Part shown: positions 15,957-56,434 of the stretch, piece by piece
Layout: every line of letters begins with the position of its first letter
Numbering within the stretch: the first letter of the stretch is position 1
Assembly (NCBI GenBank): GCA_946541575.1
Contig: CAMNJQ010000051.1
Span: 12,985-76,984, forward strand
Reading direction: 5' to 3'
Length of the DNA: 64,000 nt
Source of the DNA: an uncultured Clostridium sp.
GTDB lineage: Bacteria; Bacillota_I; Bacilli_A; RF39; UBA660
Position numbers and translations under genes: made by a program
The notes under the pieces: model-generated
Database searches by the model: none
Seen by the model: only the letters and a program-made list of their open reading frames with translations
Told to the model about the DNA's origin: nothing

Positions 15957-15958
15957 AA

Positions 15959-17824: not shown

Positions 17825-17852
17825 AAAGATTTAAGATAATCTTTCTTTTTTT
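17823..17852 (+). terminator. Rho-independent terminator of the ABC operon
   Basis: AGAAAGATT-loop-AATCTTTCT hairpin followed by T7. Confidence 0.6.
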
Positions 17853-17871
17853 GTTAATAATTTTAATTTAG

Positions 17872-17900
17872 TTGACATAAAATGGAATATATTATAAAAT
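17872..17900 (+). promoter_or_regulatory. Sigma-A-type promoter for tRNA-Cys
   Basis: TTGACA-N17-TAAAAT ends about 15 nt before the tRNA 5' end. Confidence 0.5.
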
Positions 17901-17914
17901 TATTAATATGTGAT

Positions 17915-17988
17915 GGGTCTATAGCCAAGTGGTAAGGCATGGGACTGCAACTCCCCGATCGTTGGTTCAAATCCGACTAGGCCCTCCA
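17915..17988 (+). tRNA. tRNA-Cys (GCA)
   Basis: I folded the cloverleaf by hand. The acceptor pairs GGGTCTA with TAGGCCC, the anticodon loop is CTGCAAC, and the T-arm is GTTGG-TTCAAAT-CCGAC. CCA is encoded and the length is 74 nt. Confidence 0.85.
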
Positions 17989-18032
17989 TAATGAATTTTG
18001 CTCAAATATCAAATATTTGGGCTTTGATAAAA

Positions 18033-18061
18033 AGCTAATCCAAATGGATTAGCTTTTTTTA
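18033..18061 (+). terminator. Rho-independent terminator after tRNA-Cys
   Basis: AGCTAATCCA-AA-TGGATTAGCT hairpin followed by T7. Confidence 0.65.
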
Positions 18062-18125
18062 TAAAAAGAAATGTGTTACAATATATATGTCACTAAAAAA
18101 TATACAATTAATAGGAGTATATTTT

Positions 18126-18620
18126 ATGAAAGTAATAATAAAATTCCTTTTTTTTACTTTATTTATTTTTGCTATAACAAGCTGTAATAAACATAAAATA
18201 GAAATGATTATTCCAGAAGATATATCCGCAGATGAATTATTAAAAATATATTTTGATGGATTTTATTATGTAGAACAAAATAAAATTGTAAGTGTGTTTC
18301 CAGATTTTATGAAAAACATTAAAGAAAATGAATTTTCACAAGTTTTGTTGGAAAAGAATAATAATGATATGAAAGACGAATATGGTGATAATTTTCAAAT
18401 ATCATACACAATAGTTGATAAAGAGAAAACATCTGATGTAGTATTTGAAAGTATAAAAAAATACGTCAAAAATTACGAAAATTTTGTTGAACCAAAAGAA
18501 TGCTACTTGCTAAATGGCATACTAGACATCAAAGGCTCAAAAAAGACGTCTAGCATAATATTTAACGGAGAAATTGCTTATTGTAATTTTGATGGAAAAT
18601 GGAGATTAATAAATGGATAA
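18126..18620 (+). CDS. Small lipoprotein, unknown function
   Basis: An AGGAG SD precedes the ATG at 18126. A signal peptide is followed by a lipobox (ITSC). The ORF track start at 18087 is probably too far upstream. Confidence 0.55.
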   Translation: MKVIIKFLFFTLFIFAITSCNKHKIEMIIPEDISADELLKIYFDGFYYVEQNKIVSVFPDFMKNIKENEFSQVLLEKNNNDMKDEYGDNFQISYTIVDKEKTSDVVFESIKKYVKNYENFVEPKECYLLNGILDIKGSKKTSSIIFNGEIAYCNFDGKWRLING

Positions 18621-18650
18621 AAGTAAAATAAAAGAGAAAGGAATGATTAT

Positions 18651-19151
18651 ATGATATTTACTTTTAATAAACTATATACTAATAAGGAAGAAGTAGAAAA
18701 GCATGAATTAAATACACCATTTGAAACAGCAGCAGTACTTGCAAATATTTTATGTAGCTACAATAAAGAAAACAAAAATAATTTTTATGAAATGTTACAG
18801 GTTCTTATGGGAGATATTCAACCTATATCTAATTTATTAAAGCAACAAATCGATGATAGAATGAGTCAAAATAATAAAATGGATTATATTGGCGCTTCAT
18901 ATTTTAAAGGTGCAACAGTTGAAAATAACTACACACCAAATGTACCTTATGAAATTGAAATAAAGGAAAATCCATATTCATATGATAATGAAGGATATGC
19001 TAGATTATTTTTAAAAAGTGCTGGAGCTGATAGTGAAAGACCAGTAACTTTTAGAAAAACAAAAGAAGGGAAATGGTTGCTTTGGAGTGACTCAGTATTA
19101 GGACTATTAGCTGATATTAGACCAAAGAAAAATGACAATCCATGGAGTTAA
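18651..19151 (+). CDS. Hypothetical cytoplasmic protein (166 aa)
   Basis: The ORF has an AAAGGAA SD-like element. I recognise no motif. Confidence 0.45.
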   Translation: MIFTFNKLYTNKEEVEKHELNTPFETAAVLANILCSYNKENKNNFYEMLQVLMGDIQPISNLLKQQIDDRMSQNNKMDYIGASYFKGATVENNYTPNVPYEIEIKENPYSYDNEGYARLFLKSAGADSERPVTFRKTKEGKWLLWSDSVLGLLADIRPKKNDNPWS

Positions 19152-19152
19152 A

Positions 19153-19178
19153 AAGAAGCTCAAATTTAGAGCTTCTTT
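19153..19178. terminator. Bidirectional terminator between convergent genes
   Basis: GAAGCTC-loop-GAGCTTC hairpin flanked by an A-run on one side and a T-run on the other. Confidence 0.6.
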
Positions 19179-19180
19179 TC

Positions 19181-19819
19181 TTATAAAAAATTATTATATT
19201 TATCGTAAAAACTCTCTTGAGTTTTTATTGAACTTTTTCTTTTAATTTTTAATACAACTTTTATATGTTCTTTATCTTTGTCAAATTGAACAATATAGTT
19301 TCCGTCAGAGTCATATAAGAAATACAAGTATTTTTTATATGACTCTTCTGGCTCTAATTTATCTGCATAAAAAACAGATTCATCAAAATAGCCAGCTACT
19401 TCATCTAATTCCTGTTTTGAAGGACCATAAATAGTATAATCATAAATATTTAAAATATGTTCTTCATCGCTTTTATTTTTAATTGTTACTGGAACTTTAA
19501 CTACTAATTCATTAAAATAGTTTGAATACTTATTAGTAATTCTTTCAAAACTATAAGAACTGCTAAATACTATTTCTAAATCATCAAATTCAAATAATTC
19601 ATTTGTAGTAAAAGTATTATTTAATTCTTTTACATCGATTTTAGGAAGCGAATCAAAAAAGACAACTTTTTCATTCTTACTGAAGAAAAGTGAAATCATA
19701 ATTGCTTGTTCTATGATAAGCAAAAATATTATTATGCTAAGAATAATAAAGCATCTTTTATAATAAATATTATCATTTTTCTTCCTATTTTTCTTTTTTT
19801 TATTGCTTTTTTTATTCAT
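19181..19819 (-). CDS. N-terminally anchored extracytoplasmic protein, unknown function
   Basis: A highly basic N-terminus and one TM helix are followed by a beta-rich domain that is loosely DUF4352-like. This is one of only three minus-strand genes in the window. Confidence 0.5.
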   Translation of the reverse strand: MNKKSNKKKKNRKKNDNIYYKRCFIILSIIIFLLIIEQAIMISLFFSKNEKVVFFDSLPKIDVKELNNTFTTNELFEFDDLEIVFSSSYSFERITNKYSNYFNELVVKVPVTIKNKSDEEHILNIYDYTIYGPSKQELDEVAGYFDESVFYADKLEPEESYKKYLYFLYDSDGNYIVQFDKDKEHIKVVLKIKRKSSIKTQESFYDKYNNFL

Positions 19820-19922
19820 AGCAACACCTCGAGTGATACTATAACAAAAAAATTAAAAAAAATCTATTTTTTTTGGGAAAAAAGTCTATAAACATCTAAT
19901 AATTATATTGAGGAGGTGAATA

Positions 19923-22013
19923 ATGAAAAAATATGAATGTGTCTTACAAGATGGTCCAAAGGATTGTGGAATTTGCGCACTACTTACTATCATAAAAGCT
20001 CATGGTGGGTTAGTTTCAAAAGAATACCTAAGAAATCTAACCAATACGACTTCTAATGGTGTAAATGCTTTTCAATTACTAGAAGCTGGTAAGAAAATAG
20101 GTTTCTATACACAAGGGGTTAATGGTGATGTTTTAAAAATAGAAGATAAATATTTACCTTGTATTGCACATGTAATAATCGATAAAAAATATAAACATTT
20201 TGTTGTAATTCATAAAATAGATAGAAAAAATAATAATGTTATTATTGCTGATCCATCCAGAGGAATAATAAAGATAGATATTGATAAGTTTAAAAGTATT
20301 TCTACAAATAATTATTTATTTTTTATACCAAATAAAAATATCCCAATAATGAAAAGTAATAATTTAATAAAGAACAAAATAAATGAATTTATAAATAATA
20401 ATAAAAAAATACTTTTAACAATTCTTTTCTTTTCAATACTATATACAATTGCAAATATTGTATTATCATTTAATTTCCAATTTGTAATCGATAAGGCAGT
20501 ATCATTTTATTCAAAAGAAAATTTAGCGATTATAATAATGATTCTATTAATAATCTATCTATTAAAAATTATTTTAGAATTTTTTAGAGAAAGATTAATA
20601 AATTTTATAGGAAACAAAATTAGTTTTATATTAATTAACGATTCATTGAATCATATTTTATCACTTCCTATTTTGTACTTTAAGAATAGAACTACTGGTG
20701 AGGTTTTATCAAGAATTTCTGATTTGGATGAATTGAAGGAAATAATATGCTCTTTTGTTGTTACAGTTTTTGTTGATTTATTAATAACAGTATTTTCAAT
20801 AATAGTATTATTATGTATTTCTACAAAATTATCATTAATATTAATAATTGTAATTATATTTTATTCAGTTATAACAATAATATATAATAGGTTACTATAT
20901 AATAACATTAATGATATAAAAGAAAAAAATGCTTTAGTAAATTCAACTTTAATTGAAACAATAAATGGAGCAAATACTATTAAAGAGTTAAACATACTAG
21001 AATCATTTAAAGAAAACTTTTCAATTATCTATAACTCATATTTAAATACTAGTTATAAATTAAATGAGAGACTAAATAAAAAACAACTTATAGATAATAT
21101 TGTTTTCAGTATAATGTCATTACTGATACTAAAGTTTGGAGGAGAGTTAGTAATCAATAATGAACTAAAACTATCTAGTTTAATATCTTTTAATAGCATA
21201 GTGTTATATAATCTATCTTCGATAAAAAATTTATTAAATTTTGATATTTTAATAAAAAAGACAAAAATAATTATTGAAAGAATTAATGAATTACTAAATA
21301 TAAAAGAAGAAAAATTATATTTTGATCTTAATCCAATAAAGAATTTATGTGGTTCTATACGAATTAATGGATTATCGTATAAAATAAATGACATGACTAT
21401 TATCAATAACTTTAGTACAACAATAGAATTAGGTAAAAAAGTACTAATAACAGGTAGTTCTGGATGTGGAAAAAGTACTTTGGCTAAGATTCTATCAGGT
21501 TTTCTTGAGGTAAAAAGAAATAAAGTGTTTATTGGAAATAATGACATAAATGATTATAATTTATGGAATTTAAGAGAACAAATAACTTATGTTTCTCAAA
21601 ACGAATATTTATTTAATAGCTCTTTATACGAAAATATTAACTTAAAAAAAACACGTGATAAAAATAGAGTAATAGATATTTCTAAATGTATGTTGATTGA
21701 CGAAATTGCTTCTAAAAATAAAAGCGGATATGAAATGTTACTTGAAGAAAATGCAAGTAATATAAGTGGAGGAGAAAGGCAAAGAATAATACTTGCACGA
21801 ACATTTTTAAAAAATAGTAACATATACATTTTAGATGAAACATTTAGTGAAATAAACATTGACAAAGAAAGAACAATATTGAAAAATATTTTTGAAAAAT
21901 TTAAAGATAAAACGATAATAGTTATTTCTCATAGATATGATAATAATGATTTATATGATGAAATCTACAATATGGAGAATTATGGAAATAGAAACATTTC
22001 AAAAGAATATTAA
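19923..22013 (+). CDS. Bacteriocin-processing ABC exporter with N-terminal C39 peptidase domain
   Basis: The N-terminal motif QDGPKDCGICAL carries the C39 catalytic Cys. A six-helix TMD is followed by Walker A (GSSGCGKST), the signature ISGGERQR and Walker B (IYILDE). The SD is GAGGAGGTGA. Confidence 0.85.
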   Translation: MKKYECVLQDGPKDCGICALLTIIKAHGGLVSKEYLRNLTNTTSNGVNAFQLLEAGKKIGFYTQGVNGDVLKIEDKYLPCIAHVIIDKKYKHFVVIHKIDRKNNNVIIADPSRGIIKIDIDKFKSISTNNYLFFIPNKNIPIMKSNNLIKNKINEFINNNKKILLTILFFSILYTIANIVLSFNFQFVIDKAVSFYSKENLAIIIMILLIIYLLKIILEFFRERLINFIGNKISFILINDSLNHILSLPILYFKNRTTGEVLSRISDLDELKEIICSFVVTVFVDLLITVFSIIVLLCISTKLSLILIIVIIFYSVITIIYNRLLYNNINDIKEKNALVNSTLIETINGANTIKELNILESFKENFSIIYNSYLNTSYKLNERLNKKQLIDNIVFSIMSLLILKFGGELVINNELKLSSLISFNSIVLYNLSSIKNLLNFDILIKKTKIIIERINELLNIKEEKLYFDLNPIKNLCGSIRINGLSYKINDMTIINNFSTTIELGKKVLITGSSGCGKSTLAKILSGFLEVKRNKVFIGNNDINDYNLWNLREQITYVSQNEYLFNSSLYENINLKKTRDKNRVIDISKCMLIDEIASKNKSGYEMLLEENASNISGGERQRIILARTFLKNSNIYILDETFSEINIDKERTILKNIFEKFKDKTIIVISHRYDNNDLYDEIYNMENYGNRNISKEY

Positions 22014-22407
22014 AAACATTGATATAGATTTAAAACCGTATTTAATAGTGGTTGCTATTCTTTTAAGTACATTATTTTTATTTGTATTATTTAATAAAGG
22101 CTTTTCTGATTATTTTCTAGTAACTTCAAAAGTTAAAAATAATAAAGTTATTATAGTTGTTGAAGATGAAAAATTGGAAAAAATTGTTAATAGTCAAAAT
22201 TTGATTATAGGAAAGGATACATTTACTTACAAAGTTGAAGAAATCAACGATTATATATACGAAAATATTTTGCTCAAAGAAGTAACAATCGAAATAAAAG
22301 ACTTAAATGAGGACAAAAAAATTGAAAATAACATATTAAAGCTAAAAATAATTACAGGTAAAACAAATATTTTAAATTATTTAATAAAACTAATTAAGGG
22401 GGAATGA
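21982..22407 (+). CDS. Small membrane-anchored accessory protein of the bacteriocin exporter (truncated HlyD-like?)
   Basis: The start MEIETF.. at 21982 has a GGAG upstream and overlaps the exporter 3' end. One TM helix is present. The C-terminus GKTNILNYLIKLI resembles the C-terminal end of HlyD/ComB-type accessory proteins. Confidence 0.45.
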   Translation: MEIETFQKNIKNIDIDLKPYLIVVAILLSTLFLFVLFNKGFSDYFLVTSKVKNNKVIIVVEDEKLEKIVNSQNLIIGKDTFTYKVEEINDYIYENILLKEVTIEIKDLNEDKKIENNILKLKIITGKTNILNYLIKLIKGE

Positions 22408-22410
22408 ATT

Positions 22411-22554
22411 ATTAAAGAAATAGGAAAAGAACAACTAGAAAATATAAATGGAGGAGGACTTTCACTTTTAGGAATTGCAGGAATCGTTTCAGGAGCAGTA
22501 TTTTTAATAGGAGTATTTGATGGTTATGTAAGACCATTGAAATGTAACGAATAG
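22411..22554 (+). CDS. Double-glycine-leader bacteriocin precursor A (not in ORF track)
   Basis: The translation is (I)KEIGKEQLENINGG followed by GLSLLGIAGIVSGAVFLIGVFDGYVRPLKCNE. The leader is a classic LExIxGG type and the mature peptide is GxxxG-rich. No ATG, GTG or TTG is available in frame. An ATT at 22411 lies 7 nt after AAGGGGGA. Confidence 0.55.
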   Translation: MKEIGKEQLENINGGGLSLLGIAGIVSGAVFLIGVFDGYVRPLKCNE

Positions 22555-22556
22555 AT

Positions 22557-22724
22557 ATGGAGCATTTAAATAGAAATCAACTTTTAGATATAGATGGTGG
22601 CTTTTCTCTTTCTGGAACAATAATTAATGCATTTTCTAATGGAATTAAAACAATACTTGAAGTTGGAAGAAGCTTAGGAACAGCATTAAGAAGAACGAAA
22701 GAGGATAAAATGTGCAGTCTATAG
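22557..22724 (+). CDS. Double-glycine-leader bacteriocin precursor B (not in ORF track)
   Basis: The translation is MEHLNRNQLLDIDGG followed by FSLSGTIINAFSNGIKTILEVGRSLGTALRRTKEDKMCSL. The ATG lies 2 nt after the stop of peptide A, which suggests translational coupling. Confidence 0.65.
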   Translation: MEHLNRNQLLDIDGGFSLSGTIINAFSNGIKTILEVGRSLGTALRRTKEDKMCSL

Positions 22725-22755
22725 GTAAAAAAATATTAAAAAACAAAAAAATAAT

Positions 22756-22920
22756 AATGCAAATAATATCTGCTCCCATAGCCATTTATATAGCTAATAT
22801 ATTAATAATTACTTTATTTCGATTAGGTAATTATTTAGGAACATTTTTAAGAAATTTATATTATATTGTAGTTTGTTTGAAATAGTACCATTTAAAATGG
22901 TACTATTTTTAATGATATAG
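22756..22920 (+). CDS. Possible bacteriocin immunity peptide (small hydrophobic ORF, not in ORF track)
   Basis: The translation is MQIISAPIAIYIANILIITLFRLGNYLGTFLRNLYLYCSLFEIVPFKMVLFLMI. It occupies the position typical for an immunity gene. It has no good SD and its 3' end overlaps the terminator hairpin, so support is weak. Confidence 0.3.
22884..22910 (+). terminator. Rho-independent terminator of the bacteriocin locus
   Basis: Near-perfect palindrome AGTACCATTT/AAATGGTACT followed by ATTTTT. Confidence 0.6.
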
Positions 22921-22996
22921 ACAATAATAAATCGTTATTAAATCTTGTTTTTCTTTTTTTATACTAGTATAATTATCTTATGATAGTAGGTGTGAT

Positions 22997-24235
22997 ATGA
23001 GAAATATTTATACAGGTATTGATCTTGGTAGTGATAGAATTAAAATTGTAGTAGCTGAACTAATTAAAGATAAATTTCAAGTGTTAGCATCAACTAGCGT
23101 TAAGTCTTCAGGAATAAAAAAGGGGCTAGTTGTAGACAACGAAGTAGCTCTAATGTCTTTAAATAAGGCTATAGACGAGATTGAAAAAATATTAGGCATA
23201 AGAATTGATAAAGCAATAGTAACTGTTCCAGCTAACAATAGAAGCATTAAAGTGGTTTCTGGAACAATTGACACAAATGGTGCAATAAATGGTAAGGATA
23301 TTGTTTCTGTTTTGCAAACATCTGCTGAAGGACAAATTGAAGATAACAATGAATTAGTGTCAATAATTCCAATAATGTTCACTACAGATGAAAATAAATA
23401 TACGAAAGACCCAATTGGTATAACTGCTGATAAACTATCTGTCAAAGCACTTCTAGCAACAGCACCAAAAAAGCAGATATATGATTATTTAAAAGTTTTT
23501 AATGATGCAAATATAGATGTTATAGATATAACATTTAATTGTATTGGGGATTATTACGAAGCACACGATAAAGATACTGATGAATCTATTGGAGCAATAG
23601 TTAATATTGGACATGAAAAAACGGATGTTTCAATATTTAATAAAGGTATTTTAATAAAAAATAATATATTTAATTTAGGAAGTAAAAACATAGATAATGA
23701 CATAACATATATTTTTGGAACTGATGCGAATACGTCTAGAGAATTAAAGGAAAAATTTGGACAGGCTAATAAAAAAATAGCAGATGTTAATGAAGTGTTA
23801 GAATTTGAGCTAGACAATGGAGAAAAGAAGTCAATCAATCAATTCGAGATTACAGAAGTTATTGAAGCAAGAATTATGGAGCTATTAAATCTTGCTAAAA
23901 AAGAAATTAATGACTTAACAAAAAGAAAAATTAGTTATATAATTGTAACAGGTGGTATTTCGGAGTTAATGGGATTTAACTACGACGTAGAAAGTGTTTT
24001 TGGACTTGAAGCAAAAGTATTAAACATTACAAGTATGGGAATTAGAAATAATATGTTCTCTAGTTCTATCGGAATAATAAAATATTTTCATGAAAAAATG
24101 CAATTGAGACAAAAAGAAATATCATTAATAGATAAAACTAAAATAAATGAGATTGAGCAAGGGAAACATAGTATGCTTGACTTTTCTGAAGATACATTTA
24201 TTAGTAAAATATTTGGATATTTTACTGATAACTAA
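22997..24235 (+). CDS. ftsA: Cell division protein FtsA
   Basis: Has an actin-fold N-terminus (IYTGIDLGSDRIKIVVAE). The length is 412 aa, it lies directly upstream of ftsZ, and the C-terminus is amphipathic. Confidence 0.9.
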   Translation: MRNIYTGIDLGSDRIKIVVAELIKDKFQVLASTSVKSSGIKKGLVVDNEVALMSLNKAIDEIEKILGIRIDKAIVTVPANNRSIKVVSGTIDTNGAINGKDIVSVLQTSAEGQIEDNNELVSIIPIMFTTDENKYTKDPIGITADKLSVKALLATAPKKQIYDYLKVFNDANIDVIDITFNCIGDYYEAHDKDTDESIGAIVNIGHEKTDVSIFNKGILIKNNIFNLGSKNIDNDITYIFGTDANTSRELKEKFGQANKKIADVNEVLEFELDNGEKKSINQFEITEVIEARIMELLNLAKKEINDLTKRKISYIIVTGGISELMGFNYDVESVFGLEAKVLNITSMGIRNNMFSSSIGIIKYFHEKMQLRQKEISLIDKTKINEIEQGKHSMLDFSEDTFISKIFGYFTDN

Positions 24236-44559: not shown

Positions 44560-46692
44560 ATGAATAAGTATTTTACAAACCATATTAAAGATAATAAATA
44601 TTCTTATATTAAAGACCTAAACCTTTCAGAAGATGATCTTCAAGTTAAAAAAAATGATATTGAAAATATTGAATATGATGAAAATGATGATGAATTTAAT
44701 AATGAATATGATGATTTTGAGAATGGATTAAAAATCTATTTAAAAGAAATAAGTAATTATAAAGTCATGACTAGTGAAGAAGAAATTGAATTAGCAAAAA
44801 AAATCGAGAATAATGATAAATTAGCCGAAGAAGAATTTATAAATAGAAGTTTAAGACTGGTTCCAAAAATAGCCAAGAGATATATAAATAGAGGATTAGA
44901 TCTACAAGATTTAATTCAAGAAGGAAATATTGGATTATCTAAGGCAGTAAAAAAGTATGATTATAGAAAAGGATACAGATTTTCTACTTATGCAACCTAT
45001 TGGATAATGCAATCTATTTCTAGGGCAGTTTATTATAAAGGTAGAACAATTAAACTTCCATTACAAATTAGTGAGAAAATAGTTGTAATGAATAGATATA
45101 TGAACAACTATTATGCTAGATTTGGAAAAGAACCAGAAAGAGAAGAAATAGCAAAAGAACTTGATATTTCTCTTGAGGAAGTACCTGTTCTACTAAGTTG
45201 TAGAGAAAGAATTGAAAGTTTAAACACTGAAATTGAATATGGAACAGAAAATGTTTCGGAAAAAGAGTTATTAAATTCTATACCAGATGAAAATATAAAT
45301 ATCGAAGATGAGATTATATCAAAAATAGATATAATTGAAAGATTTAAAGAAGTATTTAAAACATTAGACATTCCTCAAAGAAATTTAGAAATGTTATTAA
45401 TGAGAGTAGGAGATAGCCAAACTGATTCACAGTCATATGAAGAAATTGGGAAAAAATTTGGCATGACATCTGAAAGAACAAGACAAATAATAAAACGAAC
45501 TCTAACTATTCTTAATCTTCCAAATAATAAAACATATGTTGAAAATTATATAAAAGGTTTTCAAGAAACTGAAGAAAAAGATAGCGGTGGATTTGCTGAA
45601 AATGGCAATGAGGAACTAAAACAATTAATAGATAAAGTAAAGGAAGAATGTAAGCTAAGTGATGTAGAAATGAATGTTTATATAATGAAACTTGGCTTAG
45701 AATATGGTAAACCAAATAGTTTTGATAATATTGCAAAACAACTAAATATAACAAAAGAAATTGCTAAAAAAACATACAATAAAGTATCATTTATAATTAA
45801 AGAAAACCCTGTTGCATATACAATTATAACTGGATATATTTCAAAATTAAGAGATGAGAAGAAAAAAGTAATAAAAAATAAAAATTTAAATATTATTGAG
45901 GAGATTTTTAATAATCCAAACTTAAACAAGCTTAAAGATTATTCAAACATGACAAAAAAAGAATTGGAAATAGTATCACTTAGGTATGGTTTAATAAACT
46001 ATAAGTATATTGAAATCAATAAAATTGCTGATTTATATGAGACACTACCACAAAATATTATTTATATTTTAAATAAAGCAACAAAAAAAATATATGATAA
46101 TCAACAAGCATTAAAATTATTTAATGATATGGTTTTAAATGATGAATCATTGCAAAAAAATGGTAATATTTCAAATCAGAAAACATTAGTTAATAAAAGA
46201 TTAGGTTGTACAAAAGAAGAATTAGAATCTGTTTTGGAATGTCTTTCACCATTAGAACTGATGCTATATTTAAGGGTAATAAAAAATGATCCAACAATAA
46301 TAAATGAAGAAAAAAAGGCTTTTGAGAATATAATACTAGTAAAATTAAAGGAAGCATTAGTAACTCAAAGATATAAAAAAGATAAAGCTAAAATAATTGA
46401 AAGTATCAAAAAAGAAAACATTAGTGTAAGTGTTATTCAAACAATGATAACATATATAAATGATTCGTCTTTTTCATCGCTACTTAATAAATTTGACTAT
46501 AAAGAATTAATATCTTTCATATTATATTATGGATTATATGATAACAATAGATATTCTATAGAAGATATTTCGAATTTCTTTGGATTAAAAATTGAAGAAG
46601 TAGATAATATAATAAAAAATATTTTAAAATCTTTAAGAGAAAACAAACTTACACATCAAGAAAATAAAAATAAAAGAATAATAAAAAAATAA
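44560..46692 (+). CDS. Sigma-70 family factor (regions 1.2-4) fused to a ~370-aa C-terminal array of extra region-4-like HTH modules
   Basis: Region 2 is [41 protein letters not shown] and region 3.0 is RTIKLPLQISEKI. Region 4.2 is SYEEIGKKFGMTSERTRQIIKRTL. Repeated sigma-4-like units follow: LSDVEMNVYIMKLGLEYGKPNSFDNIAKQLNITKEIAKKTYNKV, ELEIVSLRYGLINYKYIEINKIADLYETLPQNIIYILNKATKKI and YYGLYDNNRYSIEDISNFFGLKIEEVDNIIKNILKSL. Confidence 0.75.
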   Translation: MNKYFTNHIKDNKYSYIKDLNLSEDDLQVKKNDIENIEYDENDDEFNNEYDDFENGLKIYLKEISNYKVMTSEEEIELAKKIENNDKLAEEEFINRSLRLVPKIAKRYINRGLDLQDLIQEGNIGLSKAVKKYDYRKGYRFSTYATYWIMQSISRAVYYKGRTIKLPLQISEKIVVMNRYMNNYYARFGKEPEREEIAKELDISLEEVPVLLSCRERIESLNTEIEYGTENVSEKELLNSIPDENINIEDEIISKIDIIERFKEVFKTLDIPQRNLEMLLMRVGDSQTDSQSYEEIGKKFGMTSERTRQIIKRTLTILNLPNNKTYVENYIKGFQETEEKDSGGFAENGNEELKQLIDKVKEECKLSDVEMNVYIMKLGLEYGKPNSFDNIAKQLNITKEIAKKTYNKVSFIIKENPVAYTIITGYISKLRDEKKKVIKNKNLNIIEEIFNNPNLNKLKDYSNMTKKELEIVSLRYGLINYKYIEINKIADLYETLPQNIIYILNKATKKIYDNQQALKLFNDMVLNDESLQKNGNISNQKTLVNKRLGCTKEELESVLECLSPLELMLYLRVIKNDPTIINEEKKAFENIILVKLKEALVTQRYKKDKAKIIESIKKENISVSVIQTMITYINDSSFSSLLNKFDYKELISFILYYGLYDNNRYSIEDISNFFGLKIEEVDNIIKNILKSLRENKLTHQENKNKRIIKK

Positions 46693-49886: not shown

Positions 49887-50550
49887 AATAAGTGAAAGAC
49901 TTAAAACAGTTGCTAATTTAGTCTTAGAAGGAAAATCAAAAAAAATAATAGATGTAGGATGTGATCATGCATTACTAGATATTTATTTATTACAAAATGA
50001 TTCAACTCTAAAACTAGTAGCATCAGACAATAAAAAAGCACCATTAGAAAATGCTAGAAAGAATATTGAAAAATATTCTTTTTTAAATAAAATTGAAGTA
50101 TGTCTAAAAGATGGAATAGATAATATTGATAGTGATATAGATACTATTGTAATCGCAGGGATGGGTATGGAAACAATAGTAGAAATACTAGAAAACGGAA
50201 AAGAAAAATTAAGCAATATAAATAGAATGATAATATCTTCTAATAATAAGTATCTTGATTTAAGAAAAAGAATAATAAATCTTGGATTTAAAATAAAAGA
50301 AGAAGAGATAGTATTTGAAGACAATAAATACTACATAATAATTGAATTTGAAAAAGGAAAAGATACTTATTTAGAAAAAGAATTATTCTTTGGACCAATG
50401 CTTTTAAAAAAGAAGGGAAAATTATTCAAAAGTTATTATCAAACTATACTAAATGAAAAGGAAATGATATATAATTCTTTACCAGAAAATAATCAAAAAA
50501 AAGAATATTTAAAAAAAGAAATAGAATTACTTAATGAAGAAATTAAGTAA
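49879..50550 (+). CDS. trmK: tRNA (adenine22-N1)-methyltransferase TrmK-like
   Basis: The N-terminus [12 protein letters not shown]...[16 protein letters not shown] and [11 protein letters not shown] resemble TrmK/YqfN. Its position after rpoD matches Bacillus. It has a TTG start overlapping the rpoD stop. Confidence 0.65.
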
Positions 50551-50601
50551 TTCTTTTTTGTAAATTAATATGTAAATATATAAAAAAGAATATGAAATCT
50601 A

Positions 50602-50631
50602 TTGACCATACAAAAATATTAAAAATATAAT
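50602..50631 (+). promoter_or_regulatory. Sigma-A-type promoter for the pilin-LRR gene
   Basis: TTGACC-N18-TATAAT. Confidence 0.5.
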
Positions 50632-50652
50632 TTATCTATAATAGGAGAAAGT

Positions 50653-52722
50653 ATGGAAAAGAAAAAAGAAAGTACTACCAAAAAGAAAACTATTACTAAG
50701 AAGACTAATAACAAAAAGACAATTAAGAAAACAACTACAAGAAAAAACACAAAAAAGAAGAGTAAAGCATTCACATTAATTGAATTACTTGCAGTAATAA
50801 TAATACTTGGAATATTAATGATTATAGCAATTCCTAGTGTAACAACCTATATTAGTGACTCAAGAAAAAGTGCTTATATTGATACAGCTAAAAATATAGT
50901 AGGTGGAGCAAGAAATTTAGTAAATGAAGGTAAATTAGGAATGTATAATACTGATACAACATATTATCTTCCAGCTAAAATGATAAAAACAGAAACAGGA
51001 GATTTAAAATCTCCTTATGGGGAATTTACAGAAGCATATGTTGCAGTAACATTTGATGGAAAAGGATATGATTATTACTGGACAAGTACCGATACTACAG
51101 AACAAGGAATATATTTAACATCAGTGGATAAATTAGACAATGATAGAGTAGTCGCTGGAGTAAAAGAAATAAATACAGATGTTGCAATATGTAATAAAGA
51201 AAAGATTGTAATCTTTAATTCAGATGGAACAATTAAGGAGCAAAAAGAAGCAGATGATTGTATTGATAAAAATTTTTATTATGAAGTTGAGCCAAATAGA
51301 GAGATTACAGGAACTCTTATAGGTAATGATGATGATGTTTTTACTACATTTGGCTATAGAGTTGCGAGACATGGATTGGAAAGTATTACTTTCTTAAATC
51401 ATATTAATGTTCCTGATAATGCTATTGCTTCATGGGATGCATCTGTTGAACAAAATGGGTCAATTATGGCATGGTATACAAATGAAAACAATAATTTGTA
51501 TTATGAGTTGTATGTTGGACAGGAAGGAGGAGTTATAGCGCCTAAAGATTGTAGCTATTTATTTGATTTTACAGTAGAAGTTTCTAAAATAGACTTAACT
51601 TATTTTGATACTAGATATGTTGAAAATATGGATAAAATGTTTTATCGAGCAGGAAGAGATAATCCAGATTTTAAAATTATAGGTCTTTCTAATCTAAATA
51701 CAAAAAATGTTAAAAGTATGAGTAGAATGTTTTACGAAGCTTCTGAGAAAGCAAATTTTGATTATGATATTTCTAAATGGAATGTATCTAAGGTTGAAGA
51801 TATGTCATTAATGTTCTATTATACAGGTGTTTATTCATCCACATTTAGACTTGGTGATATTGGTCGTTGGAACGTATCTAATGTTAAAACTTTTTATTCA
51901 TTTTTTGCATCAGCTGGTAGAAATGCAACAACTTGGACAATAGGTGATTTATCTAGGTGGAATATCTCAAATGCAACTAATCTTTATGGCATGTTCAGTG
52001 ATGCAGGTTCGACAGCAACATCTTGGAATATTGGTGATTTAAGCAATTGGAATGTTTCTAATGCAACAAATATTGCTTTTATGTTTTATCATAGTGGACT
52101 ATCATCAAATTCATTTAACCTTGGAAATCTTGGTAGATGGGATGTATCTAAGGTTGAAGATATGAGCTCATTGTTTAATACAGCAGGAAAAAATGCAACA
52201 AACTGGTATGTTGGAGATTTAACAAATTGGGATGTTTCAAAAGTTACAAAAATGGGCTTCTTGTTCTATTATGCAGGCTATAATGCAAATAGCTGGAGTG
52301 TAGGAAATCTAAGCAATTGGGATGTTTCAAATGTAACGGATATGAGTGGAATGTTTGCATATTCTGGTTACAAAGCAGAAAATTGGAATATAGGAGAACT
52401 TACTAATTGGGATACTACAAAAGTTACAAATATGTATCGAATGTTTTTTGCAACAGGTAATCTTGCCGGAAATTGGAATAGTATTGGTTCGTTGAAAATT
52501 TATGCTTCCGACATTAGATCTATGTTTAGTCAGTGTACTCAGCCTAAAGTTACTCTTAAGCTTTATTCTAATCCATCTTCTTATAGTCAAGTCTTTCTTA
52601 ATTCAGCTACAAAAGAAGGCAGTTATATAATTATCGATTATTCAAGTAATGTTACTGTAGTCAACGCATTACTTAGAACAATAATTTATACTTCAAATGT
52701 TACTATTGGTAATAAAATATAA
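50653..52722 (+). CDS. Type IV pilin-like N-terminal domain fused to DUF285/BspA-type repeat surface protein
   Basis: A 39-aa Lys/Thr-rich leader precedes A|FTLIELLAVIIILGILMIIAIPS, a class III signal with Glu at +5. The C-terminal half has about 10 repeats of about 30 aa, with a pattern like LsNWdVSnVtdMsgMF..aG. Confidence 0.75.
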   Translation: MEKKKESTTKKKTITKKTNNKKTIKKTTTRKNTKKKSKAFTLIELLAVIIILGILMIIAIPSVTTYISDSRKSAYIDTAKNIVGGARNLVNEGKLGMYNTDTTYYLPAKMIKTETGDLKSPYGEFTEAYVAVTFDGKGYDYYWTSTDTTEQGIYLTSVDKLDNDRVVAGVKEINTDVAICNKEKIVIFNSDGTIKEQKEADDCIDKNFYYEVEPNREITGTLIGNDDDVFTTFGYRVARHGLESITFLNHINVPDNAIASWDASVEQNGSIMAWYTNENNNLYYELYVGQEGGVIAPKDCSYLFDFTVEVSKIDLTYFDTRYVENMDKMFYRAGRDNPDFKIIGLSNLNTKNVKSMSRMFYEASEKANFDYDISKWNVSKVEDMSLMFYYTGVYSSTFRLGDIGRWNVSNVKTFYSFFASAGRNATTWTIGDLSRWNISNATNLYGMFSDAGSTATSWNIGDLSNWNVSNATNIAFMFYHSGLSSNSFNLGNLGRWDVSKVEDMSSLFNTAGKNATNWYVGDLTNWDVSKVTKMGFLFYYAGYNANSWSVGNLSNWDVSNVTDMSGMFAYSGYKAENWNIGELTNWDTTKVTNMYRMFFATGNLAGNWNSIGSLKIYASDIRSMFSQCTQPKVTLKLYSNPSSYSQVFLNSATKEGSYIIIDYSSNVTVVNALLRTIIYTSNVTIGNKI
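51590..52470 (+). repeat. Coding tandem repeats (~90-nt period, ~10 units) of the DUF285/BspA-like module
   Basis: W[ND]VS[KN][VA] .. M...F motifs recur every 30 aa or so. Some units share DNA strings, for example TCTAAGGTTGAAGATATG near 51790 and 52150. Confidence 0.7.
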
Positions 52723-52732
52723 ATGTTATAAG

Positions 52733-52758
52733 AGAATTACATATTGTAATTCTTTTTT
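52733..52758 (+). terminator. Rho-independent terminator after the pilin-LRR gene
   Basis: AGAATTACA-TAT-TGTAATTCT hairpin followed by T6. Confidence 0.65.
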
Positions 52759-52800
52759 GTTATAAAAATAGAATAACTACATATACTCTAACAGAAGGGA

Positions 52801-53529
52801 ATGATTATGATGAATGAAATAGTATCTTTTTCTAAAGAAATAGATTTTAATAATATGTTAAATAAAATAACTTCAATATCGTTAGAACACACATTAATGA
52901 TTGAAAACTCATCAATAAAAGGAGATCTAATTGTATCAGGAAGTTATATACAAACAATTGCAAGTCAAATAGAAACACCATTTTCATACAAAATACCTGT
53001 AGAAATTGAATTGGATCAAAAATATGATTTAAGTAATGTAACTATTGATATAGATGACTTTACTTATGAAATAATTGATGAAAAAAAATTAAAAGTGAAT
53101 ATTGATTTATTAATAGATAAATTAGAAATAAAAAAAGATAATGAACCTATTGAACAACTTGATGATGAATTAGTATCAGTAAATGATTTATTTAAAGAAA
53201 CAGATGAGGAAAAGAAATTAGATATCCCGCTAACAAATGATATTGAAGAAAAAAAAGAAGATAAAATAGATAATAGTAACATTCAAGACAATAATGATAA
53301 GCAAGAAGAAAAAGATAAAGATGATGAAAAGCAAGAATCATTGTTTTCAAATTTAACATCAACTAATGAATCCTATACAACTTATAAAATATATATTGTA
53401 AAAGAAGAAGACACTTTAGAAAAAATTCTAGAAAAATATAGCATATCTAAACCTCAATTAGAGGAATACAATGATTTGACTAACATATCAAAAGGAACAA
53501 AACTAATTATTCCAAATAATAATGACTAA
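52801..53529 (+). CDS. SpoVID-like protein with C-terminal LysM domain
   Basis: The C-terminal LysM is YKIYIVKEEDTLEKILEKYSISKPQLEEYNDLTNISKGTKLIIP. The N-terminus SFSKEIDF..ITSISLEHTL...IKGDLIVSGSY resembles the SpoVID N-domain. The middle is acidic. The true start may be the ATG at 52807 or 52810. Confidence 0.45.
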   Translation: MIMMNEIVSFSKEIDFNNMLNKITSISLEHTLMIENSSIKGDLIVSGSYIQTIASQIETPFSYKIPVEIELDQKYDLSNVTIDIDDFTYEIIDEKKLKVNIDLLIDKLEIKKDNEPIEQLDDELVSVNDLFKETDEEKKLDIPLTNDIEEKKEDKIDNSNIQDNNDKQEEKDKDDEKQESLFSNLTSTNESYTTYKIYIVKEEDTLEKILEKYSISKPQLEEYNDLTNISKGTKLIIPNNND

Positions 53530-54370
53530 AATAAAAAAAATTGATAATTTAAAGATATTATACAAAGACAATAATAAAATATGTATAAAAAAATCAAATA
53601 GAAATATTAATAAACTTGAAAAGTACTTTATTTCAAAAGATTTTTCAAATTATATTCCAACAAAAATAATAAATGGTTATGAAATTAGAAATTTTATAGA
53701 TGAGGTACCAATTTCGAATGAAGATAAAATAACTGAATTAATTTATTTGATTTGTATACTTCATACAAAGACAACACATTATAAAAATATAGAATTAGAT
53801 AAAATAAAAACGTTCTATGAAAAAGAAACTAATGAAATTATTGAATTAAAAAAATATTATGAATTATTATTTGACAATTGCATATATCAATTTCTTCCAC
53901 CAAGCTTATATTTTTTAATTGAAAATATGTCTTTAATAATCAATTCTTTAGATAAAAGTAAAATTTATTTAGATAAATGGTATGAAATAGTAAAAGACAA
54001 GAAAAGAAAAAGAGTAGTATTAAATCATAATAACTTAAAGATTTCTAACATAATTATAGGGAATAAACCATATTTGATAAACTGGAATAAAGCAGTAGTT
54101 GATTACCCAATATATGACTTATTATCATTATTTAAAAACAACTATGAATTTATTGATATGATAGATATTTATAATATTTACTTATCAAAATATGGATTGC
54201 TTAAAGAAGAGAAAATGTTATTATATTCAAGCCTACTTAAAATTCAAAAAGTATCATTTGAAGACAATGAAATAGAAAACACAAAAAAAGCTACAGAAAT
54301 AATAAACTATTTAAAATCTATTAATAATTTCTTAAATAACAATATTGAACAAGATAAATGTAAGTGCTAA
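53522..54370 (+). CDS. CotS/YsxE-like phosphotransferase-fold protein (catalytic motif degenerate)
   Basis: VLNHNNLKISNIIIGNKPYLINWNKAVVDYPIYDL aligns with the APH/CotS HxDxxxxN...D motif, but reads H-N-N. It follows the SpoVID-like gene as ysxE does in Bacillus, overlapping it by 8 nt. Confidence 0.4.
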   Translation: MTKIKKIDNLKILYKDNNKICIKKSNRNINKLEKYFISKDFSNYIPTKIINGYEIRNFIDEVPISNEDKITELIYLICILHTKTTHYKNIELDKIKTFYEKETNEIIELKKYYELLFDNCIYQFLPPSLYFLIENMSLIINSLDKSKIYLDKWYEIVKDKKRKRVVLNHNNLKISNIIIGNKPYLINWNKAVVDYPIYDLLSLFKNNYEFIDMIDIYNIYLSKYGLLKEEKMLLYSSLLKIQKVSFEDNEIENTKKATEIINYLKSINNFLNNNIEQDKCKC

Positions 54371-54550
54371 TAATTCTAAAAAAAGAATTATAGCATTTAT
54401 TTTTGTTGTTACAAAAATTAAAATAAATGATTGATAAAAAATAACAATAATTAACATTAAAGTAAATGCAAGATATAAAATACTTCTTTTTCTTTTATTT
54501 TTACAAACTCTACATCTACAAAAAAGATTATGTTTTGATGATTTAAACAT
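54332..54550 (-). CDS. Small Cys-rich two-TM membrane protein
   Basis: The minus-strand SD is good (AGGTGATATA-ATG). The N-terminus is CRCRVCKNKRKR, followed by two hydrophobic helices. Its 3' end overlaps the YsxE-like gene by 39 nt. Confidence 0.4.
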   Translation of the reverse strand: MFKSSKHNLFCRCRVCKNKRKRSILYLAFTLMLIIVIFYQSFILIFVTTKINAIILFLELLALTFILFNIVI

Positions 54551-54605
54551 TATATCACCTAATATATTATATGTAGAGTTTTACATTATGTAATAAAAAA
54601 AAGAT

Positions 54606-54632
54606 TTGTAAATAGCCTTATTATGATATAAT
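54606..54632 (+). promoter_or_regulatory. Promoter with extended -10 (TGaTATAAT) for the second pilin-like gene
   Basis: TTGTAA-N15-(TGa)TATAAT. Confidence 0.45.
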
Positions 54633-54655
54633 TTATAATATATGGAGATGTTAAT

Positions 54656-56434
54656 ATGAAAAATAAAGGATTTACATTAATAGAATTAATAGCAGTTATT
54701 ATAGTAATGGGAATGATACTTTTAATAGTGTTTCCAGCAACATCTAGACTTTTAAGAGATAATGAAGAAAAAGAATATAAAAACTATTATGATATAGTTT
54801 CTGCAGGATTAGAGCAATATGCTAGAACAAGAAGAGATGATATTGGTGGAACTACAGGTAGTGGTTGTATTGATACCGTATTAGAAGCAAATAGTTATGG
54901 TATTAAAGATTTAATTGAGAATGATTATATTAAAGAATTTGAATTGGATAAAGAGTCAAAAGAAGCAGGAAGAAAGTATAAGAATGTAGAAAACTATGAA
55001 GGAGTTATTTGTAGAACACCACAAGAATTTGTTCCAGCAGAGCTAACTGATGCAGGAATTGATATGTCTAAAGAATATGTTGGAATGAGAATTGAAAACA
55101 ATGAAGGAAAAATTAAAACACAATTAAGTATGATTTGCAAGAAAAAGGGATCAAATAAAATAGAATATCAAAATTTAATTGAAAAGACAGAAACTTGTTC
55201 AAAATATGTTGCAGATATACAAAATTCACTAATTAAAACATTAATGGATAAAAAAACATCTGGTACATTCTTAGCAAATAATCCTGATGGTGATGATGAA
55301 TTCTATGTTAACGGAACATCAACAAATAATTATTTATGGTATTCAGGAAAAATGTGGAGAATTGTAAGTTATAATACTAATAATAAAACTATAAAATTAG
55401 TAACAGATGAAAATATAACAATAAGGCCATATAATTCAAATAATGATTATTATAGTAGTAATATTAGAGATTGGCTAAATGGAACATTTTTGAGTACTTT
55501 AAAGAATTCAAATAGATATTTACTTGAAAATGCAACATGGAACTATACGACTATAACACAAACAAATCCAACAAAACCTAGTTTGAGTTCTACTAAAGGA
55601 GATTATGTAGGAATGCTTAATTATTATGAATATAGTAAAGTAGGAGGATTCTTAAACAATGGTAAAAAATATTGGCTATTATCAAAGTCAAATGAAACTG
55701 ACGAAGCTTGGTATGTAAATCAAAATAACGGTCAAAAAGGAAATGTATCTAGCTTTATGGGAATAAGACCATCAGTTGTATTAAGACCAAATTTAACTGT
55801 ACTAAATGGTGGTGAAGGAACAGCAAATAATCCTTATATTTTAACTGGAGACATGAGCGCAAGCGCAGGAACTTACTTAAATACAAGATATGCTGGTGAA
55901 TATGTAAAATTTAATGATGTAGTATTTAGAATAATAGAAACAAGTGCAGAACATACAAAACTAATATCAGATACTACTATTCAAAATGATATTGAATTCC
56001 ATTACTTTGATAATAAATATTCAAATAATACAACAATAGGAAATGCTTTAATGACATGGGTAGAACCTGTTGATAATATGTTAACAGAAGCAAATTACTG
56101 TAGACAAAAGATAGAAACATCACAAATTAATCAATGTAGTATAGATGATGAAATAGCTCTTAAAGTTGCTATCCCAGCTATAGGAGATATGTTTACTGCA
56201 GATATTGATTCAGGTTTAGAATACTGGACAATGACAAATGCAGAAGATGAAATAGTTAATCCAGATACAGGTGAAACAATTGCAAAAATATATGTAGTTA
56301 AATCTAGTGATGCAACTTTACTAACAAAAGAAATAGAAGATAAATCAAATGTAAGAGCAGTTGTTTCAATAAAAAATACAGCAACAATTGTTGGTGGAAC
56401 TGGAACTAAGAATAGTCCTTATGAAATACAGTAG
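54656..56434 (+). CDS. Type IV pilin-like N-terminal domain fused to a large extracellular domain
   Basis: The prepilin signal is canonical: MKNKG|FTLIELIAVIIVMGMILLIVFP. The C-terminal part carries motifs such as YLWYSGKMWRIV, IRDWLNGTFL, YWLLS and IRPSVVL, which I associate loosely with DUF6273-type domains. A second related module follows (VVFRIIE...YWTMT...VRAVVSI). Confidence 0.65.
   Translation: MKNKGFTLIELIAVIIVMGMILLIVFPATSRLLRDNEEKEYKNYYDIVSAGLEQYARTRRDDIGGTTGSGCIDTVLEANSYGIKDLIENDYIKEFELDKESKEAGRKYKNVENYEGVICRTPQEFVPAELTDAGIDMSKEYVGMRIENNEGKIKTQLSMICKKKGSNKIEYQNLIEKTETCSKYVADIQNSLIKTLMDKKTSGTFLANNPDGDDEFYVNGTSTNNYLWYSGKMWRIVSYNTNNKTIKLVTDENITIRPYNSNNDYYSSNIRDWLNGTFLSTLKNSNRYLLENATWNYTTITQTNPTKPSLSSTKGDYVGMLNYYEYSKVGGFLNNGKKYWLLSKSNETDEAWYVNQNNGQKGNVSSFMGIRPSVVLRPNLTVLNGGEGTANNPYILTGDMSASAGTYLNTRYAGEYVKFNDVVFRIIETSAEHTKLISDTTIQNDIEFHYFDNKYSNNTTIGNALMTWVEPVDNMLTEANYCRQKIETSQINQCSIDDEIALKVAIPAIGDMFTADIDSGLEYWTMTNAEDEIVNPDTGETIAKIYVVKSSDATLLTKEIEDKSNVRAVVSIKNTATIVGGTGTKNSPYEIQ

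Follow-up and report, generated by a model that had tools for sequence, protein, structure and literature searches.

The gene described here occupies positions 50653-52722 of the window, that is, the whole 64-kb stretch of DNA that was analysed, which lies on contig C51 of a metagenome-assembled genome (MAG) comprising 77 contigs and 1.6 Mb, with ~26% G+C and 94% completeness. Its 689-aa product joins a type IV pilin module to a repeat module of the DUF285 type behind an unusually long leader peptide rich in Lys and Thr (K/T-rich). The best reading, at a probability of about 0.6, is that the protein is a modular minor or tip pilin that would undergo processing by PilD, the prepilin peptidase, and present a DUF285 adhesin, as in Streptococcus sanguinis PilB. 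The features of the gene, all on the forward (+) strand, are as follows; model confidence is given as the predicted local distance difference test (pLDDT).

50602..50631, + strand: sigma-70-like promoter with TTGACC (-35), an 18-nt spacer, and TATAAT (-10); a consensus match only
50643..50648, + strand: Shine-Dalgarno AGGAGA, read from the sequence; 5 nt (50648-50652) separate its GGAG core (50644-50647) from the ATG
50653..52722, + strand: modular prepilin coding sequence, 689 aa, stop codon within the range; from translation of the open reading frame (ORF), Pfam, NCBIfam, and AlphaFold2
50653..50769, + strand: leader peptide, residues 1-39, K/T-rich with Ala at -1; predicted cleavage after Ala39
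50770..50925, + strand: alpha-1 helix, residues 40-91; the first ~25 residues are the hydrophobic alpha-1N with Phe+1, Glu+5, Gly+14, and Pro+22
50926..51264, + strand: beta-sheet head, residues 92-204; strands at 102-204 in the AlphaFold2 model
51265..51369, + strand: linker, residues about 205-239; low-confidence model region with pLDDT ~51-69 around 205-230
51370..52719, + strand: DUF285/PARCEL repeat module, residues 240-689; from Pfam, NCBIfam, the repeat count, and the model
51604-52497, + strand: ten 30-residue repeats of the W[ND][VT]SxVxxMxxMF type with a strict period, residues 318-615

According to the promoter search across 50300-54800, the match at 50602-50631 is the most promoter-like one (11 of 12 positions), and this promoter recurs, with 3 differences across ~100 nt, in the closest paralogue, located on contig C54. 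Because the ATG at 50653 is the sole in-frame start of the ORF and stands directly after the Shine-Dalgarno sequence and the promoter, the long leader is predicted to be genuinely translated. A downstream start that would shorten it was rejected, since there is no in-frame ATG, GTG, or TTG between 50653 and the cleavage site. The leader itself, residues 1-39 (MEKKKESTTKKKTITKKTNNKKTIKKTTTRKNTKKKSKA), contains 17 Lys and 10 Thr, carries +16 as its net charge, and has Ala as its last residue; the first-pass annotation, which preceded this analysis, had rightly called it exceptionally long.

That annotation had also recognised a type IV pilin N-terminus with Glu at +5 fused to DUF285 repeats, and profile searches bear out both parts. 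The residues right after the leader read FTLIELLAVIIILGIL..., with Glu at +5, and are recognised by Pfam N_methyl (PF07963 / IPR012902; 28.9 bits, cut-off 21.2) and by NCBIfam IV_pilin_GFxxxE (TIGR02532; 21.8 bits, cut-off 16.3). As for competence pseudopilins, the ComGC and ComGE models give 28.4 and 19.7 bits against cut-offs of 75 and 49, respectively, and the NCBIfam equivalogs for ComGC, GspG, and PilA all remain far under their cut-offs for this protein. The C-terminal part is matched by Pfam DUF285 (PF03382) with 167.4 bits (cut-off 25, E = 1.3e-49) and by the NCBIfam PARCEL repeat TIGR02167 with 68.8 bits (cut-off 30). Regarding its extent, about 10 DUF285-like repeats over ~350 aa had been proposed: the count of ten stands, with a 30-residue period, but the length does not, as the repeats cover ~300 aa and the entire C-terminal module ~450 aa.

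The AlphaFold2 model of the protein, built with 42 homologues, has a mean pLDDT of 90. Residues 1-38 of the leader are disordered (pLDDT <50) and residues 42-91 form a single helix of pilin alpha-1 length (~50 residues), while the repeat solenoid continues to the C-terminus with a regular strand/short-helix pattern and pLDDT of 95-98. When modelled alone, the pilin module reaches a pLDDT of 93. Solved pilins such as PilE1, PilA, and MshA are matched by a profile built on the module with E = 1e-8 to 1e-9, in alpha-1 only, and for the DUF285 module a sequence search of the PDB returned no solved relative. The head is conserved across the pilin-module family, and no Pfam family was found for it in a permissive scan. 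Thus, the model predicts a "lollipop" architecture, the head of which would be lineage-specific.

The strongest conservation is found in alpha-1N. In ten paralogues the mature N-terminus is identical over 29 aa, while their DNA differs at a mean of 13 of 87 nt (~15%), all differences being synonymous; the identity is therefore attributed to purifying selection, and gene conversion was rejected as its cause. F1, E5, G14, and P22 are invariant across homologues, and the same mature N-terminus stands behind short MKNKKG leaders in this genome. Such constraint appears far stricter than a plain membrane anchor needs.

A whole-genome motif scan reports 24 class III genes in 1.6 Mb. Leaders of 30-49 aa, all ending in Ala, are found in 11 of them, each with a GGAG-type Shine-Dalgarno sequence before the ATG, and in the other 13 the leaders are short and end in Gly without exception. 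One conserved pilin module of ~150 aa is common to the paralogues, and their payloads include DUF285, BspA-type LRR_5, CBM_2, Hint, DUF6273, and unassigned domains. Module-only small pilins are also present (e.g., C14:4967-5698), with tandem ~225-aa copies in sister genomes. Several class III copies are located at contig ends, which indicates that these repeats break the assembly. All 17 genus genomes (1.0-1.9 Mb) contain the module, in 8-56 copies per genome; relatives in the family and order have ~15, and most other lineages of the class 0-3. The N_methyl-DUF285 architecture is common among 2,710 homologues, whose named hosts are uncultured gut, rumen, and cecum MAGs labelled "Bacilli / Erysipelotrichaceae / Mollicutes". 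The target gene is thus not a singular oddity, as it belongs to a large paralogous family whose architecture is already catalogued.

Some further members of the family were noted. The paralogue at C41:19925-22138 (-) has a 46-aa leader with Ala(-1), followed by the pilin module, a Cys-rich region, and a C-terminal Hint domain; it is reminiscent of self-cleaving polymorphic-toxin-type proteins, and one homologue (P0077) ends similarly. In one sister genome (G001, contig C51:9000-13250, L106-L109) four pilin genes stand in tandem, three of which have 39-41-aa K/T-rich leaders ending in Ala (METKKKTTTTKKSATAKK…KKKA). Another sister genome (G003) has 56 module matches in 1.6 Mb. A number of module copies in sister genomes, G003 among them, hold 1-3 in-frame stops each, a sign that pseudogenisation or turnover may be frequent in this family.

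As for the assembly machinery, pilB, pilC, pilD, and comG genes are lacking from the 64-kb window, as previously stated. The first-pass annotation had added that a genome with no prepilin peptidase or assembly ATPase would speak for a plain signal-anchor protein; this genome, however, contains the cognate peptidase, the extension ATPase, and the platform protein, on contigs C19 and C13. Its one prepilin peptidase (PilD; C19:11819-12616, 265 aa) has a PF01478 match, a four-Cys N-terminal domain, and a GGGDVK motif, and is adjoined by a two-domain PilC (C19:12629-14326, two PF00482 domains). The PilB/GspE-type ATPase (C13:7049-8599) matches PF00437 with 416 bits, and two minor-pilin-like genes lie beside it. 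According to NCBIfam typing, the ATPase is best classified as GspE/PilB and the platform protein as GspF/PilC, ComGA and ComGB being less alike. A second prepilin peptidase was not found in the genome.

Low-complexity extensions seem to be common in the pilus system of this genome. PilB carries a K/D/E-rich tail of ~120 aa (…KDKDKDKDKEKSKEKEKDKDKDKDKDKKKK), and PilC has a Q/P/N-rich N-terminal extension of ~160 aa.

The tip-adhesin-like minor pilin that the first-pass annotation had suggested is retained as the best reading of these data. The prepilin would insert in the membrane with its polybasic leader on the cytoplasmic side, and the single PilD on C19 would cleave it after Ala39 and probably N-methylate Phe40. 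The mature 650-aa protein would then enter a PilB/PilC-built type IV filament through its invariant alpha-1N, presumably as a low-abundance or tip subunit because of its bulk, and the DUF285 solenoid with its ten repeats would be displayed by the filament, via a flexible linker, as a putative binding (adhesin) module.

Several observations weigh against this reading. The 39-aa leader exceeds the published range of type IV pilin leaders, 6-26 aa (PMC4471445). One machine must serve 24 pilin-like proteins, most of them bulky. PilT was not found in the genome, and PilM was not detected, PilN and PilO not having been searched; the only PilM_2 match is read as FtsA from its position beside a presumed ftsZ, neither gene being confirmed by domain scan. 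The assembling machine is not certain either, because a second, Tad-like locus lies on contig C50 (~14400-23100; L125:2467-11095). It encodes an 866-aa VirB11/TadA-like ATPase whose C-terminal tail consists of ~13 tandem 14-aa repeats PVAEVA[AT]QPVVPVQ, and its neighbours, identified by eye from translations, are two polytopic membrane proteins, a 71-aa Flp-like protein, and TadE-like and CpaB/CpaE-like proteins. The "pilin fold" of the head is a topological assignment only, because Foldseek against the PDB gave no significant match for either the full model or the pilin module alone. Finally, the MAG is 94% complete and has 6.6% contamination.

A possible, though clearly less probable, explanation is display without long pili, in which the protein would be processed by PilD and then kept in the membrane or in a short wall-spanning pseudopilus-like stub, the class III signal and the minimal PilB/PilC machine providing a general surface-display route instead of adhesive fibres, one that may be likened to the archaeal bindosome or the type II secretion pseudopilus. 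A classical pilus is indeed hard to fit to so many class III proteins, 24 in this genome and 8-56 module copies per genome across the genus, most of them large, and the detectable machinery is minimal, with neither PilM nor PilT found. The Sulfolobus bindosome (PMC3047682) is a precedent for surface proteins with class III signals outside pili. However, the frozen alpha-1N (Glu5, Gly14, and Pro22) points to a requirement of filament packing, the module-only small pilins are available for a filament shaft, and the three sortases of the genome offer another route for display.

With regard to cleavage, Ala at residue -1 had been described as contrary to a near-invariant Gly. This description is not supported. 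Class III leaders are defined as ending in "Gly or Ala" (PMC8179133, PMC10191384), and cleavage of Streptococcus pneumoniae ComGC after Ala15, followed by N-methylation, has been documented by mass spectrometry (PMC3694846). Moreover, Ala(-1) is present in 8 of 111 (~7%) related pilins of species-representative genomes, some with 5-aa leaders. Taken together, these three lines of evidence make Ala(-1) a normal minority variant in Bacilli. The junction of the target reads ...KKKSKA followed directly by FTLIELLAVIIILGILMIIAIP, that is, a hydrophilic leader ending in Ala and then ~21 hydrophobic residues with Glu5, which fits the Gly/Ala definition.

It is nevertheless conceivable, if unlikely, that the class III segment serves as the transmembrane anchor of an uncleaved protein and the 39-aa leader is kept as a cytoplasmic tail, with Ala(-1) and the leader length blocking PilD. 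The last leader residue has been called critical for processing (PMC4471445), and a +16 tail would retain the N-terminus within the cell. Ala(-1) and long leaders co-occur perfectly in this genome (11/11 vs 0/13, p = 4e-7), and the association pooled outside this genome has an odds ratio of ~8.8, computed over related sequences that are not independent. This association, however, may be explained by linkage, the -1 codon travelling with a leader cassette. The ComGC precedent also speaks against a block by Ala, and short-leader/Gly paralogues have the identical sequence from +1 to +29, under an extreme purifying selection that would be needless for a simple anchor.

The evolution of the leader gives further reasons to disfavour such an anchor. 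Among homologues, leader length is continuous from 4 to 52 aa. The ratio of nonsynonymous to synonymous divergence (pN/pS) between close paralogues is 0.29-0.79 in the leader and 0.42-0.55 in the head vs 0-0.08 in alpha-1N, and in several paralogue pairs synonymous divergence is lower in the leader than in alpha-1N, which suggests mosaic ancestry. On the tree of mature pilin modules the leader classes are scattered: the 15 long/Ala rows require 14 changes and cluster no better than shuffled labels, and one short/Gly copy from this genome is sister to a homologue with a 44-aa/Ala leader. A single origin of long/Ala leaders was rejected on account of this scatter. The same module has seen many switches of leader type while the leader stayed weakly constrained, and a discarded peptide fits this better than a retained tail. 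Judged from the sequences, the uncleaved membrane anchor is thus disfavoured. The leader behaves as a translated, loosely constrained cassette that would move via recombination in the invariant alpha-1N DNA, the -1 codon included. Most simply, it would be a weakly constrained, disposable extension that spread by recombination together with Ala(-1). Literature searches found no precedent for pilin leaders of 30-50 aa, and K/T-rich leaders of this length appear to be an undocumented variant feature, apparently under weak constraint.

The opposite interpretation, namely that long K/T-rich leaders ending in Ala form a distinct, selected class III subclass and serve as a handle in the cytoplasm or a kinetic gate by which PilD processing is slowed or ordered, is doubtful. 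If it were true, a minimal machine facing dozens of payload pilins could load given adhesin subunits at set times, e.g., the tip subunits that prime a filament, and the freed +16 peptide might itself be functional. A leader that regulates processing would also bear on how type IV machines choose among many pilins. Least credible of all is a phase-variable adhesin switched in contingency-locus style by slipped-strand mispairing in the poly-A tracts of the Lys-rich leader: the large surface-protein family, the A-rich 5' part of the coding region, and a genomic G+C of 26% might invite it, but it was rejected, as the longest A-run of the target leader is 6 vs 10.7 expected (P = 0.0006) and AAG makes up 36% of Lys codons in leaders vs 18% genome-wide (p = 3e-8), short runs and AAG enrichment together indicating that selection removes slippery tracts.

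In comparison with known systems, the preferred reading, a processed modular pilin, has its closest parallel in S. sanguinis. Modular pilins there act as adhesins that are probably located at the tip (PilB, PMC8179133), and the pair N_methyl-DUF285 (IPR012902-IPR005046) already figures in the census of modular pilins by Raynaud et al. 2021 (PMC8179133, Dataset S1). The target qualifies as a modular pilin in the same sense, combining N_methyl with DUF285, a domain that is not specific to type IV pili, across the low-confidence linker at ~205-239. Like PilB (pilin + vWA) and PilC (pilin + lectin) of S. sanguinis, it has a class III signal, a small pilin module, a short linker, and a bulky binding module; both hosts are monoderm (Bacilli), and a minor or tip adhesin role is expected in both cases. 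The leader of S. sanguinis PilB, however, has 7 aa, whereas that of the target has 39, is K/T-rich, and ends in Ala. In contrast to the payloads of PilB and PilC, the DUF285 repeat solenoid comes without a characterised ligand, and the head, unlike that of the S. sanguinis modular pilins, has neither a Pfam family nor a Foldseek match. Modular pilin genes also differ in number and arrangement: 24, scattered and with their own promoters, in this genome vs 2, in the pil cluster, in S. sanguinis.

S. pneumoniae ComGC, the major pilin of the competence pilus, resembles the target in its Bacilli class III signal and Ala-ending leader. It is, however, a small major pilin with a 15-aa leader and is assembled by ComGA/ComGB, while the machinery in this genome is of the PilB/GspE and PilC/GspF types. 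DUF285/PARCEL or "BspA family" proteins of Mycoplasma and Firmicutes (PF03382, TIGR02167) have the same repeat type and a presumed surface-binding role; they are lipoproteins or have classical signals, whereas the repeats of the target ride on a pilin module. Among homologues, the DUF285 module is found on pilin, TasA/camelysin-like (PF12389), vWA, or Listeria-Bacteroides-repeat N-terminal parts.

Longer-than-usual leaders, of 15-30 aa, are also known from type IVb pilins such as TcpA and CofA. The large minor pilin CofB of enterotoxigenic Escherichia coli, which has extra domains, is located at the tip (PMC8179133), and type IVb pili are confined to Proteobacteria (PMC10191384). The target differs from these proteins in its type IVa-like alpha-1N (FTLIE, G14, and P22) and in a leader that is longer still and of low complexity, and the scattered genes and the Bacilli-type MAG host likewise place it outside the type IVb group. 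As for the Sulfolobus bindosome of sugar-binding proteins, it resembles the target system in that large functional surface proteins use a prepilin-type signal and a minimal assembly system dedicated to them. It is archaeal, though, with other peptidase rules, and homology is limited to the signal type, so that the comparison is an analogy only.

Regarding the origin of this copy, two further features of the window, both on the + strand, are relevant.

50499..51170, + strand: duplicated 5' cassette comprising the end of trmK (~50 nt), promoter, leader, and pilin module; 85% identical to C54:4175-3488
54656..56434, + strand: second pilin-like gene, 592 aa, leader MKNKG, DUF6273 module; syntenic in 9/10 sister genomes

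In 10/10 sister genomes trmK is followed directly by a spoVID-like and ysxE-like pair, and in 9/10 this pair is followed by a short-leader pilin of 553-588 aa (orthologous to 54656-56434), then HD and valS. The target gene is absent from all 10, which makes it a lineage-specific insertion, while the second pilin gene, unlike the target, is a conserved core gene; the first-pass annotation had not related the two to each other. At the module boundary, 51170, just before the linker, the target ceases to resemble its closest paralogue on C54. The two loci share a 12-residue TrmK tail that is native to TrmK in sister genomes, and the C51 locus is therefore taken as the donor of the cassette. On C54 the same 12 residues end a 387-aa gene (C54:4123-5286, -), giving it a chimeric C-terminus with a transplanted TrmK tail. 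The copied cassette replaced the C-terminus of this unrelated gene and gained a different payload. It is proposed that the family diversifies via duplication of the 5' cassette (promoter, leader, and pilin module) combined with exchange of the 3' module.

Two other genes of the window are worth recording. In the 710-aa protein at 44560-46692, encoded just upstream of dnaG and rpoD, sigma-70 regions 1.2, 2, 3, and 4 lie within the first ~320 residues, and the C-terminal extension of ~390 aa is not matched by Pfam. The gene at 19923-22013 encodes an ABC transporter whose N-terminal part is a C39 peptidase domain, of the type exporting bacteriocins or double-glycine peptides.

Overall, the protein is a sound and fairly ordinary addition to the catalogued N_methyl-DUF285 architecture, in which the long K/T-rich leader alone is unusual. 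What it adds are recurrent leaders two to three times as long as any on record, tied to Ala(-1) and behaving as mobile cassettes under weak constraint, together with a clear instance (C51 to C54) in which a cassette was duplicated and its payload exchanged. For uncultured small-genome gut Bacilli, the share of coding capacity given to the pilin-module family is striking: this genome has 24 of its genes, and a relative of 1.6 Mb as many as 56. The attachment of these gut and rumen bacteria to hosts, food particles, or other microbes probably depends in large part on such a payload-swapping pilin family.

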